DNA of 64,000 nucleotides from a virus (lineage: Duplodnaviria; Caudoviricetes). A program made the translations under genes and the position numbers. Positions 30,039-45,373 of this stretch are shown one piece after another. Below the pieces are notes generated by a model, which worked only from the letters and a program-made list of their open reading frames with translations, made no database searches and had not been told where the DNA came from. Location: IMG/VR virus record IMGVR_UViG_2724679285_000001, positions 1,782-65,781 of that record; one strand, written 5' to 3'. Within the stretch, counting starts at the first letter, position 1. Each line of letters starts with the position of its first letter.

Positions 30039-30287
30039 TCACCGGTCCCCCATCCGTTGCAGCCGGTCGTTCTCAACGATCGCGCCGAGCACCTTGTGTG
30101 TCAGGGCGAGCGCCCCATCGCCGTAGCGGTGTTCAACGAACCCGACTGTTTTGCGGCCCTGCTCGCGATAAACCACCCAGCGGTACGTGTTCACCGAATC
30201 CGGTGCGCTACCAGCACTCGTGGTCCTGGTGATCCCGACCGACGTGATCGGATCGTTGTTGACCTGAACATCGACGTAAACGCTCAC
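30039..30287 (-). CDS. hypothetical protein
   Basis: 82 aa; VEHRYGDGALAL motif. Confidence 0.55.
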   Translation of the reverse strand: MSVYVDVQVNNDPITSVGITRTTSAGSAPDSVNTYRWVVYREQGRKTVGFVEHRYGDGALALTHKVLGAIVENDRLQRMGDR

Positions 30288-31195
30288 CGCGGCACCACCG
30301 GGTACTCATCCCACGTGCGGCTGTCGAGCGTCCGGCCGGCTTGCTGCTTTCCGACGCGACGAATCGTGGCGAACGGGGCCGCGGCATGCTGGCCGTGCAG
30401 GTCCCCGATCCGCGCGTGCTGGCCGTCGAAGAAGACCAGATGGTCGTTCACCGTGCGGAAGTCGGGCACGTCCGGTTCGACCGGACGCCACTCCCCCCAT
30501 TGCTTGAACAGGAACGGCACCCCGGCGACCTGGCACTGATCTCGGAGACTGCGTGCCCAGTCGGGGTTCATCGGACGGGCGCAGCGACCAGACTCGCCGC
30601 CGACGATCACCCAGTCAATGCCATCCAAGTCGACATCATCTATCGGTCCAAGCAGAGGCTCACACGAGAAGAACCTGACCGCGGCCGGCGTTTCACGTAA
30701 GGCGTCACCGCGGATCTTCGCCCACTGCTGATTCTCAGCCGAGACACCCAACCAGACGTTCGGCAGCGGCCACATCCCGACCAACTCAGACGCCGAGGGC
30801 GTCAAGTCCTCCACGAAACTGCTGAACTTGCGCGACCTGAGAAGAGACCTCATCCGCGCGTGCCGTTTCGTGAGCACCTGAAACGTGTGCTGCGGGCATC
30901 GAGCCATCACCGAGAAGACGCGTGCGATGTAGTCGTCATGCACTTCGTCGTGGAATAGGTCGGACATCGAATTGACGAAGATGCGTTTCGGCTTGCGCCA
31001 TGTCATCGGCAACGACAACTTGTCAGGCCGACCCTGGACATCGAACCCCCGCTCGAAGTAGTGGCCCGGCGTGCCGCGGAACCGCTCGGCGAACGTCTCG
31101 GCGTAGCAATTGGTGCACCCATCGGAAACCTTGGTGCACCCAGTAACGGGATTCCATGTGGCGTCGGTCCATTCGATGCCGGTCTTGTCGCTCAC
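30284..31195 (-). CDS. DUF5131 (phage gp37/gp68-like) protein
   Basis: IEWTDATWNPVTGCTKVS.GC.NCYA, FVNSMSDLFH, WVIVGGESG and FLFKQWG motifs. Confidence 0.9.
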   Translation of the reverse strand: MSDKTGIEWTDATWNPVTGCTKVSDGCTNCYAETFAERFRGTPGHYFERGFDVQGRPDKLSLPMTWRKPKRIFVNSMSDLFHDEVHDDYIARVFSVMARCPQHTFQVLTKRHARMRSLLRSRKFSSFVEDLTPSASELVGMWPLPNVWLGVSAENQQWAKIRGDALRETPAAVRFFSCEPLLGPIDDVDLDGIDWVIVGGESGRCARPMNPDWARSLRDQCQVAGVPFLFKQWGEWRPVEPDVPDFRTVNDHLVFFDGQHARIGDLHGQHAAAPFATIRRVGKQQAGRTLDSRTWDEYPVVPR

Positions 31196-31782
31196 CGCGG
31201 TACTCCTCGAATCGCGTACGGGCACGGCTCATCCGGGGCAACCGTCGGCATCAGCACATCCCGCCGATACACCGCCGCATCCACGTACTCCTCGAAGCCG
31301 GCCACCTCGACACCGGTCGCCTGATTCACAATCACGACCGTCCTCACGCCGCCACCTCGATAGCGTTGAGCAGTTGCCTGCCGATGTGCTCGGTGTAGGC
31401 GGGTGGAATTGCTTCAGCGATCTCTCTCCGGACGTCGGTCCAGTCGATACCCATCGCCTTCTGCCACTGCGCTACCGTCCCCTTTCCCCCACCATCGCCG
31501 TAGACGGCGAAGTACGGTCCGTCGAACCACTGACCATGCCGGTAGCCGGCCACGCGGCCGCGGTGCGGACGATGGGATAGCTGCTGCAGCGGCCTGTTCG
31601 ATTCGAAGATCCGGTGCCGTATCACCGACAGCCCGAACATCTCCCCGCACAACGTGATCGGATCAATTAGCGGCGCCGTCGGCACGTTCTCGATGACGTA
31701 CGGAAGACCCAACTGTTGCAGGAGCTCACGCGTCGGCGGAACCAGGTCGGGATAATCATCGACGTTCGCATTGTTCCCCCGG

Positions 31783-32309
31783 TTATCTGTAACGACTTCC
31801 GTGGGTGTGTAGGACTGTGTACGACGTACGGTCGGCATCCCCGAATCCCCGTGGGGAACAGTGTTATCTGTAGCGGTGTAACCGACGTGAACACACATCA
31901 GCCGACCCCGCGCGGCTTCAGGTAGTAGTCACATCCGCAGGTGCATCGGGATGGCACCGCACGTAGCTTTCCGGTCGATTCATCGAAAGCTGTCACTTCA
32001 AGGTGGCGCCCCTCCATGTGACCGCAGACGGGACACCGGGAAATCTTCGCTTTCAGCGTTTGGGGCATGGATAGGCACGCAGGGTGGTGCGCACGCCCAC
32101 CGTTGAGGTCCAACTCGGCTTGCCCTTCTGGGATAGCCTCGCCGCATGTTGCGCAAGCGTCGCTCTTACTAGTCATATCGGCGGATGGTTCCTCTCTCTG
32201 CGTCGTAGACATGTGAACCAGGTTGTCGGGGTGGATTATTCGACCTACTCATGTGCAAGTGGTGCTGAACTGCGGCAATGTGGCGCATCGATCGATTCGT
32301 TACGGATAA
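31783..32309. mobile_element. 527-bp MPME-like ultra-small element with 13-bp terminal inverted repeats
   Basis: TTATCTGTAACGA ... TCGTTACGGATAA (12/13 match); no target duplication; extra 6 bp GATGTG at 32310-32315; lower GC than flanks. Confidence 0.8.
31898..32212 (-). CDS. element-borne Cys/His-rich protein
   Basis: CATC...HHPAC...CPVCGH...H...CTCGC; no transposase motif seen. Confidence 0.6.
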   Translation of the reverse strand: MSTTQREEPSADMTSKSDACATCGEAIPEGQAELDLNGGRAHHPACLSMPQTLKAKISRCPVCGHMEGRHLEVTAFDESTGKLRAVPSRCTCGCDYYLKPRGVG

Positions 32310-32541
32310 GATGTGGCAAGGGTCGTGTAGCGCTGACAGGGCGGCGACGCATGGATGGCATCGAACATGGTGCCGTTGTCCACAGCGCCGCGCAGCCAGG
32401 CGATCGCATCAGTCTGGAAGAACTCGAACGGGTAACTGGGTTGCGGGTCGATGTCGACGCCGACTACTTGAAACCCCGCGCGGTGATACCCCATACCGGC
32501 GCCACCTGCACCGCAGAACAAGTCGAGAAGCAGTGGGCGGT

Positions 32542-32799
32542 TCACGATCCGCTCACTTCGCCGCAGGGTGGTTGGGTGTCGATGCGGTGAGCGGCGCGCT
32601 CGGCGTCCTGCCTGGTGTCGAAATGCTTGCCCCCGACTGGCAGCAGCAGCGACGGCAGACCGTCCCACCCGTACGCCCGCAACAGCCACTGCGCACCGAC
32701 ATGACGGATCCGGTACCAGCCACGCACCCCGGCCGCGGTGGCGAGAAGCTCGTTACGGCCGACCGGACGCCACACCAGGCCCGTAGTCGCGGTGGTCAC
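32542..32799 (-). CDS. hypothetical protein
   Basis: 85 aa with coupled junctions. Confidence 0.5.
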
Positions 32800-44195: not shown

Positions 44196-45373
44196 TGCCC
44201 CGCCAACGACTCGCCCCCGGCGAGCACGGCAAGGTCACCACCACGCGCACCGGAAACGCCTGGGTGGCTTCGACATACGTTCGCCTCCACACCGGCCAGC
44301 TCCGGGAGCGCGAAGCCTCCTCGGCCAAGTCCGCTGAGGATGCCCGCCGGACCCTCCTACGCCGTATCAAGGCCGAGCTGGAGCGGTCGGTGCCGACCGG
44401 CGAGATCACGATGCGCACCACCCTCTCCCAACTGTTCGAGGCGTGGATCGCCGCGAAGACCGCCGATGGGCTCAAGAAGCAGTCCGAGGATCTGTACCGG
44501 CAGGCCTGGCGGCTCCACGGTCACCGGCAGCTCGGCGCCCTGCGGATCGCCGAGTTGTCGACCAGCCGGGCCGACGCCCACTTCCGGGACATGCCGCCGT
44601 CGCAGGCGCAGACACTGCGGGTGGTCCTCACGGGCATGTACGCGATGGCCGCCCGTCATGATGTCGTGCGCACCAACCCGATCCGCGAGACGCAGCCGGC
44701 GGCGACGCAGCGGAAGGCGGCCCGGGCGCTGACGGCGGCGGAGTTGGAGGAGGTGCGCGCAGCGGTGCGGGCGTACGCCGCGCCCAGTGGTCGGCCGGGG
44801 CCGCCGCGCGGGGTCATGCTGCCCGCCTACGTCGAACTGTTGGCGGCCACCGGCGACCGGCCGGGCGAGGTGTTGGCGATCCGCTGGCCGGAGGTCGATC
44901 TGCTCGGCGATCCGCCGACGGTCACGGTGTCCGGGACGCTGATCGATCACGGCCGGATCCGCGGGAAGGCGCTGCACCGGCAGGACGTCCGAAAGGGTGA
45001 CGCGCCACCACACACGGTGCTGCTGCCTCAGTTCGGTGTGGATGTGTTGACCGAACTGTTCGGCCTCACCGGTGCCGCGGACGGGCCGGTGCTCACCAAC
45101 CGCAACGGTGACTGGATCAGCCCGTCGAACATCGCGAGCGCGCTCCGTGAGGCGCTGTCGCCGTACGAGCATCTGCGGTGGGTGACGCCGCACAGTTTCC
45201 GTCGGACGGTCGCGACGGTCGTCCGGGACGGCATGGGCATCGAGGCGGCGCAGGCGCAGCTCTCCCATGCCCAGCTCTCGACGACGGAATCGCACTATGC
45301 GCAGCGCCGGACGGTGGGGCCGGATGCCCGCGCTGTGTTACAGAAGTTCGCTGGAGACCAGGACGGTACGTGA
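44195..45373 (+). CDS. int: tyrosine integrase
   Basis: TGDRPGEVLAIRW (R), K, HSFRRT (H-x-x-R) and LSH...TTESHY. Confidence 0.92.
   Translation: MPRQRLAPGEHGKVTTTRTGNAWVASTYVRLHTGQLREREASSAKSAEDARRTLLRRIKAELERSVPTGEITMRTTLSQLFEAWIAAKTADGLKKQSEDLYRQAWRLHGHRQLGALRIAELSTSRADAHFRDMPPSQAQTLRVVLTGMYAMAARHDVVRTNPIRETQPAATQRKAARALTAAELEEVRAAVRAYAAPSGRPGPPRGVMLPAYVELLAATGDRPGEVLAIRWPEVDLLGDPPTVTVSGTLIDHGRIRGKALHRQDVRKGDAPPHTVLLPQFGVDVLTELFGLTGAADGPVLTNRNGDWISPSNIASALREALSPYEHLRWVTPHSFRRTVATVVRDGMGIEAAQAQLSHAQLSTTESHYAQRRTVGPDARAVLQKFAGDQDGT

Follow-up and report, generated by a model that had tools for sequence, protein, structure and literature searches.

Introduction

What is the insert that splits a DNA methyltransferase gene in a Mycolicibacterium prophage, where did it come from, and which enzyme moves it? 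The gene lies in a stretch of 64,000 nucleotides (the window; positions 1,782 to 65,781 of the 65,781-bp viral record IMGVR_UViG_2724679285_000001, Duplodnaviria; Caudoviricetes), whose coordinates are used below unless a locus is named. Over the stretch compared, the window is 100% identical to a contig of Mycolicibacterium canariasense, and we therefore regard it as a prophage of that species. The insert is a 527-bp element with 6 additional bp on one side. It is quite probably a non-autonomous miniature of the type called mycobacteriophage mobile element (MPME), derived from and moved in trans by a family of Mycobacteriaceae transposons that resemble Tn554 and the strand-biased circularizing elements (SEs) and encode two tyrosine recombinases.

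MPMEs were reportedly described by Sampson and colleagues in 2009; the passages cited here assign no enzyme to them. A passage of Pope et al. (2011; PMC3029335) states that every MPME insertion adds 6 bp between the left inverted repeat (IR-L) and the target, and that their origin ‘remains a mystery’. SEs and Tn554 are defined, in passages of PMC9345347 and PMC10214605, by the transfer of 6 bp of donor flank to the opposite end, by a tyrosine recombinase pair with an ordinary and a large member, and by a small TnpC/Srap protein. The same passages describe a 6-bp spacer in the circular form of the Vibrio SEs and 6-bp transfer in Tn554-related elements. Actinobacterial relatives of Tn554 are described in a passage of Van Houdt et al. 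(2012; PMC3414803) from several Mycobacterium genomes, including M. smegmatis mc2 155.

The insertion in the methyltransferase gene

The insert cuts a C5 DNA methyltransferase gene on the minus strand into two. The N-terminal fragment (32316..32545) matches phrog_363 at profile positions 49-130 (E 1.5e-24), matches Pfam PF00145 just short of the cut-off (E 2.6e-4), and was aligned with the WXIN and Phabuloso homologues. Its start is likely the GTG at 32545, which overlaps the stop codon of the upstream open reading frame (ORF). The C-terminal fragment (31344..31782, minus strand) begins RGNNAN, ends with the stop codon 31344-31346 and matches phrog_363 at positions 134-216 (E 7e-17). Phage records that match it number 324, and the intact phage methyltransferases among them reach 75.5% identity to it.

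Excising 31783-32315 (533 bp) yields a single frame of 222 codons counted from the GTG at 32545, as the initial annotation had claimed. That annotation had also proposed an alignment of intact homologues across the junction. In the intact homologue of phage WXIN, whose DNA is uninterrupted at this point, the 18 residues spanning the junction are identical and gap-free. The Phabuloso homologue also aligns over the junction, with one 1-residue gap 8 residues downstream.

The empty site itself was found in run X3, in a contig that belongs to a different organism and joins 31781 to 32315. This contig has the same prophage stretch, without differences over 396 and 384 flanking bases and with a 1-base ambiguity at the joint. 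Because it skips exactly 533 bp, including the hexamer GATGTG, there is no target duplication and the insert consists of the 527-bp element plus 6 bp, as first proposed. The filled site was seen in two runs; run X4 covers the flanks in part only. The runs that were aligned consisted of assembled contigs. Runs X7-X19 gave about 0.15-0.22 of sampled words, which is roughly the element's share of the stretch, and we base no claim on them.

Extra DNA inside a gene could also be an intron, an intein or an artefact of assembly, and the ORF of the insert does lie on the same strand as the gene that it interrupts. We give this explanation almost no weight. No Rfam intron family matched at E up to 1, the only hit being a chance microRNA match, and an intein is excluded because the length of 533 bp cannot be divided by 3. 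Intergenic DNA and genes other than this one also hold identical copies, and filled and empty sites come from separate runs.

The methyltransferase gene is adjoined by a 313-aa ORF (30284-31225, minus strand) with weak DNA similarity to hypothetical genes of Gordonia phages and M. abscessus prophages.

Element structure and family

The element is bounded by terminal inverted repeats at the positions first reported, starting at 31783 and ending at 32309. The right repeat (IR-R), which is the outer one at its end, reads TTATCTGTAAC on the plus strand (31783-31793). IR-L, an 11-bp repeat, reads TTATCCGTAAC in element orientation (32299..32309, minus strand). This end has a single repeat site, lies upstream of the ORF and is kept in all five intact copies described below and in large elements. 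The terminal 13-mers TTATCTGTAACGA (31783-31795) and TCGTTACGGATAA (32297-32309) are complementary at 12 of 13 positions. Taken by itself this pairing is not above chance, as nine inverted pairs of similar size occur in 900 bp. Beside IR-L lies the hexamer (32310..32315), GATGTG on the plus strand and CACATC in element orientation.

IR-R is part of a right-end module of about 115 bp (31783..31897, minus strand), which also holds a tandem 10-mer (31806-31825) and an inner copy of the repeat, TTATCTGTAGC (31864-31874). This inner repeat lies 81 bp inside the 31783 end and was absent from the initial annotation. The remaining feature is the cargo ORF (31898..32176, minus strand), which encodes 92 aa from the start conserved in its family, M13 at 32176, or 104 aa from the ATG at 32212.

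Loci with the small element were gathered from viral, metagenome and genome collections. Intact copies of 527-534 bp were found at five unrelated sites: the window (= L020), L004, L006, L017 and L024. A sixth copy (L018) is truncated by the end of its contig, and a decayed copy without the left end is present at L015 and L021-L023. The layout of the small copies is uniform: left repeat, ORF, inner repeat, about 80 bp, outer repeat. In every pairwise BLAST comparison homology is confined to the element and stops at its ends. Insertion sites include the methylase gene (window), intergenic DNA (L004) and an HNH endonuclease gene (L006). The copies at L004 and L017 match without a difference in all 529 bp and in exactly 6 bp more on the IR-L side (a 535-bp match), and share nothing else. 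The existence of an empty site and of identical copies at other loci shows that the element is mobile and arrived recently.

For L004 and L006 no close relatives that could provide an empty site were found in viral contigs or phage records. L006 without the element and 6 bp has the length of the HNH protein of Horus, which gives weak support to the same arrangement there. One of three pattern matches, L007, was rejected as a chance match in an AT-rich phage.

Large elements with the same ends

A BLAST search of the 527 bp against 401 Mycobacteriaceae genomes found the inner-repeat region or the whole right end in four (G001, G097, G258 and G319). Matches in G183 and G185 were weak and internal and were disregarded. 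The matched right ends in G001, G097 and G258 belong to large elements of 8-18 kb, both chromosomal and plasmid-borne. The G097 element is 8,107 bp long (L119, 1592-9698). G258 has two 100% identical copies of a 17.7-kb element, and G003 has two identical copies of a 12.2-kb element.

These large elements are bounded by the same 11-bp repeat, TTATCTGTAAC, as the small one. Between sister copies, homology begins exactly at TTATC and ends at GATAA or within 2 bases of it. The last 115 bp of four large elements are colinear and nearly gap-free with those of the window element and four other small copies, at 59-68% identity. In this right end both repeats, inner and outer, and a TACACA block are conserved, and the spacing from inner to outer repeat is 80 bp in small and large elements alike.

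Three co-directed genes adjoin the shared right end and encode products of 486, 744 and 142 aa. The 486-aa protein has PF00589 and PF02899 domains and keeps the R, HxxR, H and Y residues when aligned with XerD; its best NCBIfam matches are XerC and XerD, far below their cut-offs. The 744-aa protein has a C-terminal PF00589 domain, in which the R/HxxR/H/Y motifs were seen by eye. The 142-aa protein has weak DUF6262/helix-turn-helix (HTH) matches. Its homologues occur in 42 of the 401 genomes; among the 30 loci examined, paired TTACAGATAA ends lie just downstream only in the three nearest relatives.

Such a transposon is present in the host of the window prophage. In that genome (G001), contig C7 (6,964 bp) starts precisely with the outer repeat and shares 99.5% identity with the G097 element, and its recombinase is 98% identical. 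Both genomes with an intact small element (G001 and G003) have the recombinase at 94% identity or more, compared with none of the three genomes with only a decayed small copy. G003 is the host of the intact copy L024, and has two copies of the recombinase at 94% identity.

Three further observations concern the large elements. One homologous chromosomal site is occupied in G097, G003 and G258, with a different hexamer in each (L119 9698/1592; L172 19921; L170 15059), and reads ..C(C/A)ACCTG [hexamer] element GATCGCGG... The comparison suggests a preferred target like att554. Besides its recombinases, the 8.1-kb element encodes a 421-aa HTH and IrrE/M78 peptidase protein (L119 5627-6889, minus strand) and two proteins, of 479 and 242 aa, that match no family. 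In G319 (L120, contig C39) the right-end module lies at 93541-93641 and a 142-aa homologue 31 kb away on the same strand, which may indicate a very large or rearranged element.

Origin of the hexamer

The initial annotation had called the 6 bp a coupling sequence, and a second copy of the element establishes their source. Contigs from run X5 (an isolate) and run X6 (a biofilm metagenome) carry a 100% identical copy at another locus. The six plus-strand bases before TTATC there, in the IR-R flank, are GATGTG, which is also the sequence at 32310-32315 in the window, where it follows GGATAA. Because this IR-R flank equals the window hexamer, the window copy came from the X5/X6-type locus or a sister of it. 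The 6 bp are taken from the donor IR-R flank and placed beside IR-L at the new site.

The same relation holds between copies of the large elements. In G258, the GACTAC left of chromosomal copy C1 equals the first six bases right of copy C2. In G003, the left hexamer of C1 (CGCAGA) equals the right flank of C3.

For MPMEs, we assembled 75 viral-contig loci with a 22-base pattern and added phages BPs and BQuat, which gave 77 copies. These collapsed to 27 left and 24 right contexts; in six copies the right end was not recognisable, and no right flank was taken from them. Four of the 13 distinct MPME1 hexamers (TGATCA, CGCCAG, CATTAC and CGAAGA) equal the start of the IR-R flank of another site, whereas uniform hexamers would be expected to give about 0.08 matches. 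The 22 control offsets together produced a single match (offset 6), due to a tandem CGAAGACGAAGA. A two-step chain can be read among the MPME1 copies, from an L061-type site to L108 and on to L093. MPME2 has a single hexamer, CGTAGC, in 11 different left contexts, so an old hexamer can also be inherited.

The MPME1 flanks (L034-L108) also occur in mixed combinations: the same left flank and hexamer are found with three right flanks, and one right flank is found with five left flanks. MPME1 copies therefore seem to act as crossover points that shuffle Cluster-F-like phage genomes. At these loci the first base beyond the right end of the MPME is never a purine: 21 of 24 right contexts have C there and the other 3 have T. 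Most MPME hexamers, too, begin with C or T. This preference is not seen in the new family.

Enzyme and mechanism

With a 92-aa ORF as its only gene and no recombinases, the window element can only be a non-autonomous derivative. The kind of enzyme best supported is a tyrosine recombinase. The initial annotation had proposed a tyrosine-recombinase substrate, specifically one of XerCD. The first part is supported by the ends shared with recombinase-encoding transposons. The second is not favoured, since transposons with the same ends encode a recombinase pair of their own and one of them is in the host.

Movement by host XerC/XerD would require the excised circle (IR-R, 6-bp spacer, IR-L) to act as a dif-like site. 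The resemblance is real. The junction expected of such a circle, ...ACAGATAA-N6-TTATCYGT..., and the host dif-like site TGTGCCGATAA-gccaca-TTATGTCAACT have the inner GATAA/TTAT and a 6-bp spacing in common, and 7 and 6 of the 11 positions in the respective arms agree. Each of three host genomes has this host site (core GATAA-gccaca-TTATG) once. Every host has XerCD, and elements without an enzyme would thereby be explained. The likeness fits Xer-like recombinases in general, however, such as the 486-aa protein. Substrates of the IMEX kind carry a dif-like site and integrate at the host dif; the insertion sites here (a methylase gene, an HNH gene and intergenic DNA) are none of them dif, and the two arms of the element have the same sequence rather than being one XerC arm and one XerD arm. 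Dedicated transposons with the same termini, the doubled right end and an Xer-like pair of their own are present in the same host and follow the same 6-bp rule. Intact small elements also co-occur with these transposons (2/2 versus 0/3 genomes), whereas Xer is universal. We consider XerCD an unlikely mover. The ‘dif-like cassettes’ to which the initial annotation had likened the element were not found: the window contains no ATAA-N6-TTAT site.

Additional dif-like sites, with intact arms GCCGATAA ... TTATGTCAA and different 6-bp centres, were seen at L030, L031 and L032 (G003:C5, G002:C18 and G003:C4). They may be Xer sites of plasmids or integrated elements.

The prophage's own tyrosine integrase is a poorer candidate still, and we think it very improbable. 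The phage record has one PF00589 gene (domain at about 44804-45307, E 1.7e-12), and a 6-bp signature fits a tyrosine recombinase. Nothing ties the attachment site of this integrase to the TTATC repeats, however, and the large chromosomal elements that share the ends of the small one encode recombinases themselves and move in genomes irrespective of this phage.

Mobilisation in trans by the two recombinases of the large elements is our preferred explanation because the ends are shared, the 6-bp rule is shared and the elements co-occur. The recombinases would bind the repeats and cut with a 6-bp stagger at the IR-R flank. A circular or copied-out intermediate would have the junction IR-R-6 bp-IR-L, and its integration would leave the 6-bp spacer beside IR-L, as described for Tn554 and SEs. 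Both recombinases would act in trans, probably together with the small 142-aa protein. The 6-bp stagger and the placement of the hexamer always on the left would fit the ordered strand exchange proposed for SEs.

Several points weigh against this explanation. The case for mobilisation in trans draws on shared ends and on co-occurrence in two genomes, and in one of these, G003, both 486-aa recombinase genes (L164 and L165) carry two in-frame TGA codons. The G003 copy may therefore be dead; the codons could reflect a pseudogene, recoding or an error in the sequencing. Co-occurrence was counted over genomes, and the phage-borne copies L004 and L006, on viral contigs, fall outside that count. The right-end modules of large elements have modest identity to those of the small ones (59-68% over 115 bp), and sharing at the left end is limited to the 11-bp repeat. 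The recombinase genes of the large elements point toward the nearby end, unlike those on the published Tn554 map that PMC10214605 describes. Finally, no large element with ends matching MPME1 or MPME2 was found in the 401 family genomes or in 380 genus genomes.

The cargo protein

The initial annotation described the sole ORF as a 104-aa Cys/His-rich protein with no transposase motif, which agrees with our analysis except that the conserved start shortens it to 92 aa. Across 17 sequences, C8, C11, H31, C34, C48, C51, H53, H58, C78, C80 and C82 are invariant. No Pfam family matched at cut-off, the best being weak zinc-ribbon matches. An AlphaFold2 model from the 17-sequence alignment (mean pLDDT 60.9, pTM 0.39) was too poor for a fold search.

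Relatives of the ORF fall in 14 protein clusters, and those without repeats are free-standing phage genes (L005/L026, L019 and L025). A 49-aa gene (gene 87; L002 2501-2650) in 12 M. abscessus prophage records is 48% identical to residues 55-98. The second zinc-binding half of the cargo ORF thus also occurs as a stand-alone phage gene. Compared with the genes of the large elements, the ORF is unrelated (best tblastn E 0.94; hhalign probability 0.2%). Since it is unrelated to those genes and is an ordinary phage gene elsewhere, we take the small zinc-finger ORF to be probable cargo or an accessory factor and not the enzyme.

Could the 92-aa protein instead be the enzyme, as a new transposase or recombinase of very small size? 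The element has no other ORF, 11 Cys/His residues of the protein are invariant, and MPME1 and MPME2 likewise have a single small ORF. The protein shows no catalytic motif of a known transposase class, however, and it is unrelated to the MPME1 ORF despite the shared ends and insertion signature. Large elements follow the same rule when they move, although they lack it, and its homologues include the repeat-free phage genes above. We regard a catalytic role as improbable.

Relation to known mobile elements

The window element resembles MPMEs in several respects. Both are ultra-small and have one small ORF; MPMEs are borne by mycobacteriophages and the window element by a Mycolicibacterium prophage. 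MPME1 in phage BPs is 439 bp long (TTATCAGGGGT...ACCCCAGATAA), and its 123-aa ORF starts 67 bp inside the left repeat. MPMEs have 11-bp imperfect terminal repeats that open with TTATC, and the window repeats (TTATCCGTAAC/TTATCTGTAAC) share TTATC and the G at position 7 of TTATCAGGGGT. In both, insertion causes no target duplication and adds 6 bp beside the repeat upstream of the ORF, the same side as in phage BPs, and the donor-derived hexamer is common to MPME1 and the window element.

They differ in length (527-534 bp in the window family versus 439-440 bp), in the doubled right end, with an inner repeat 80 bp inside, which is a feature of the window family and not of MPME1/MPME2, and in the candidate parent transposon, found for the window element and not for MPME1/MPME2. 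A blastn search (words of 11) of 50,697 phage records, of which 382 have MPME1/2, gave no match to the window element; MPME1 and MPME2 are about 79% alike. Its cargo ORF gave no BLASTP alignment with the 123-aa MPME1 protein at E up to 100 (hhalign probability 0.3%). The MPME1/2 proteins matched no Pfam family, and the MPME1 ORF matched the 142-aa protein at E 8.5. In BLAST searches with MPME1 DNA, the 401 family genomes gave one match internal to the ORF and weak ones, and the 380 genus genomes gave weak short matches. By these comparisons the window element is a separate, third family of the MPME kind. This agrees with the initial annotation, which had called it MPME-like and distinct in size and apparently in cargo.

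The large relatives share the Tn554 layout as given in the cited passages, with two tyrosine recombinases, one ordinary and one long, and after them a small third gene (486, 744 and 142 aa). In those passages Tn554 makes no target duplication and moves a 6-bp footprint to the opposite end, as do the large relatives and the window element. Tn554-related elements are also described there with a preferred chromosomal site and with identical copies on the chromosome and a second replicon, and the large relatives are similar. The assignment of the large elements to the Tn554-like class rests on this architecture and on the description in a passage of PMC3414803. The cited passages mention no miniature derivatives of this class, and they give neither termini nor a 6-bp rule for its actinobacterial members. 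The window element differs in that it encodes none of the Tn554 proteins and lives in a phage.

SEs, in the passages cited, have imperfect terminal repeats and a 6-bp spacer in the circular form, and the donor 6 bp beside the recombinase-proximal end pass to the distal end. Catalysis is attributed there to tyrosine recombinases only. The window element is alike in its imperfect repeats and in the 6-bp transfer, and would be alike in the circular form and the catalysis under the preferred explanation. It differs from SEs as described in those passages, which have four core genes (intA, tfp, intB and srap), are autonomous and occur only in Gammaproteobacteria.

Elements of the Tn916 type make staggered 6-bp cuts with a tyrosine recombinase, as is proposed here, and likewise carry a donor coupling sequence at one junction and cause no target duplication. 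Tn916 has one integrase and Xis, is conjugative, and may have its coupling sequence at either end, whereas the hexamer here is always at IR-L. MITEs (miniature inverted-repeat transposable elements) are short, keep only the ends of a larger autonomous DDE element and need its enzyme in trans, as is proposed for the window element and its parent. The putative parent here differs in using tyrosine recombinases; there is no target duplication, and an unrelated ORF is carried.

Implications

Tn554-like actinobacterial transposons and MPMEs are both already in print, and no link between MPMEs and Tn554 was found in the literature searched. What appears to be new is a third MPME-like family, its tie to a tyrosine-recombinase transposon of the host, and the donor origin of the hexamer. 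The results supply three missing links for MPMEs: a hexamer from the donor site, ends in common with transposons that encode a recombinase pair, and one such transposon in the same host. They extend the 6-bp footprint rule of Tn554 and Vibrio SEs to Mycobacteriaceae, and the termini of actinobacterial Tn554-like elements can now be given. With recombinases supplied, the open question of the MPME 6 bp becomes directly testable by experiment. The hexamer matches also suggest that transposition histories may be traced among phages.

A broader proposal is that all MPMEs, including MPME1 and MPME2 in 382 mycobacteriophage records, are non-autonomous Tn554-like miniatures, moved in trans by host-borne recombinase pairs while phage DNA is in the cell. 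We judge the chances of this to be evenly balanced. If it is true, the 6-bp insertion of MPMEs would be the crossover footprint from the donor IR-R flank, and chains of hexamers would record which phage site donated to which. MPMEs would then be the first MITE-like class driven by tyrosine recombinases, and a route by which the enzymes of host transposons reshape phage genomes.

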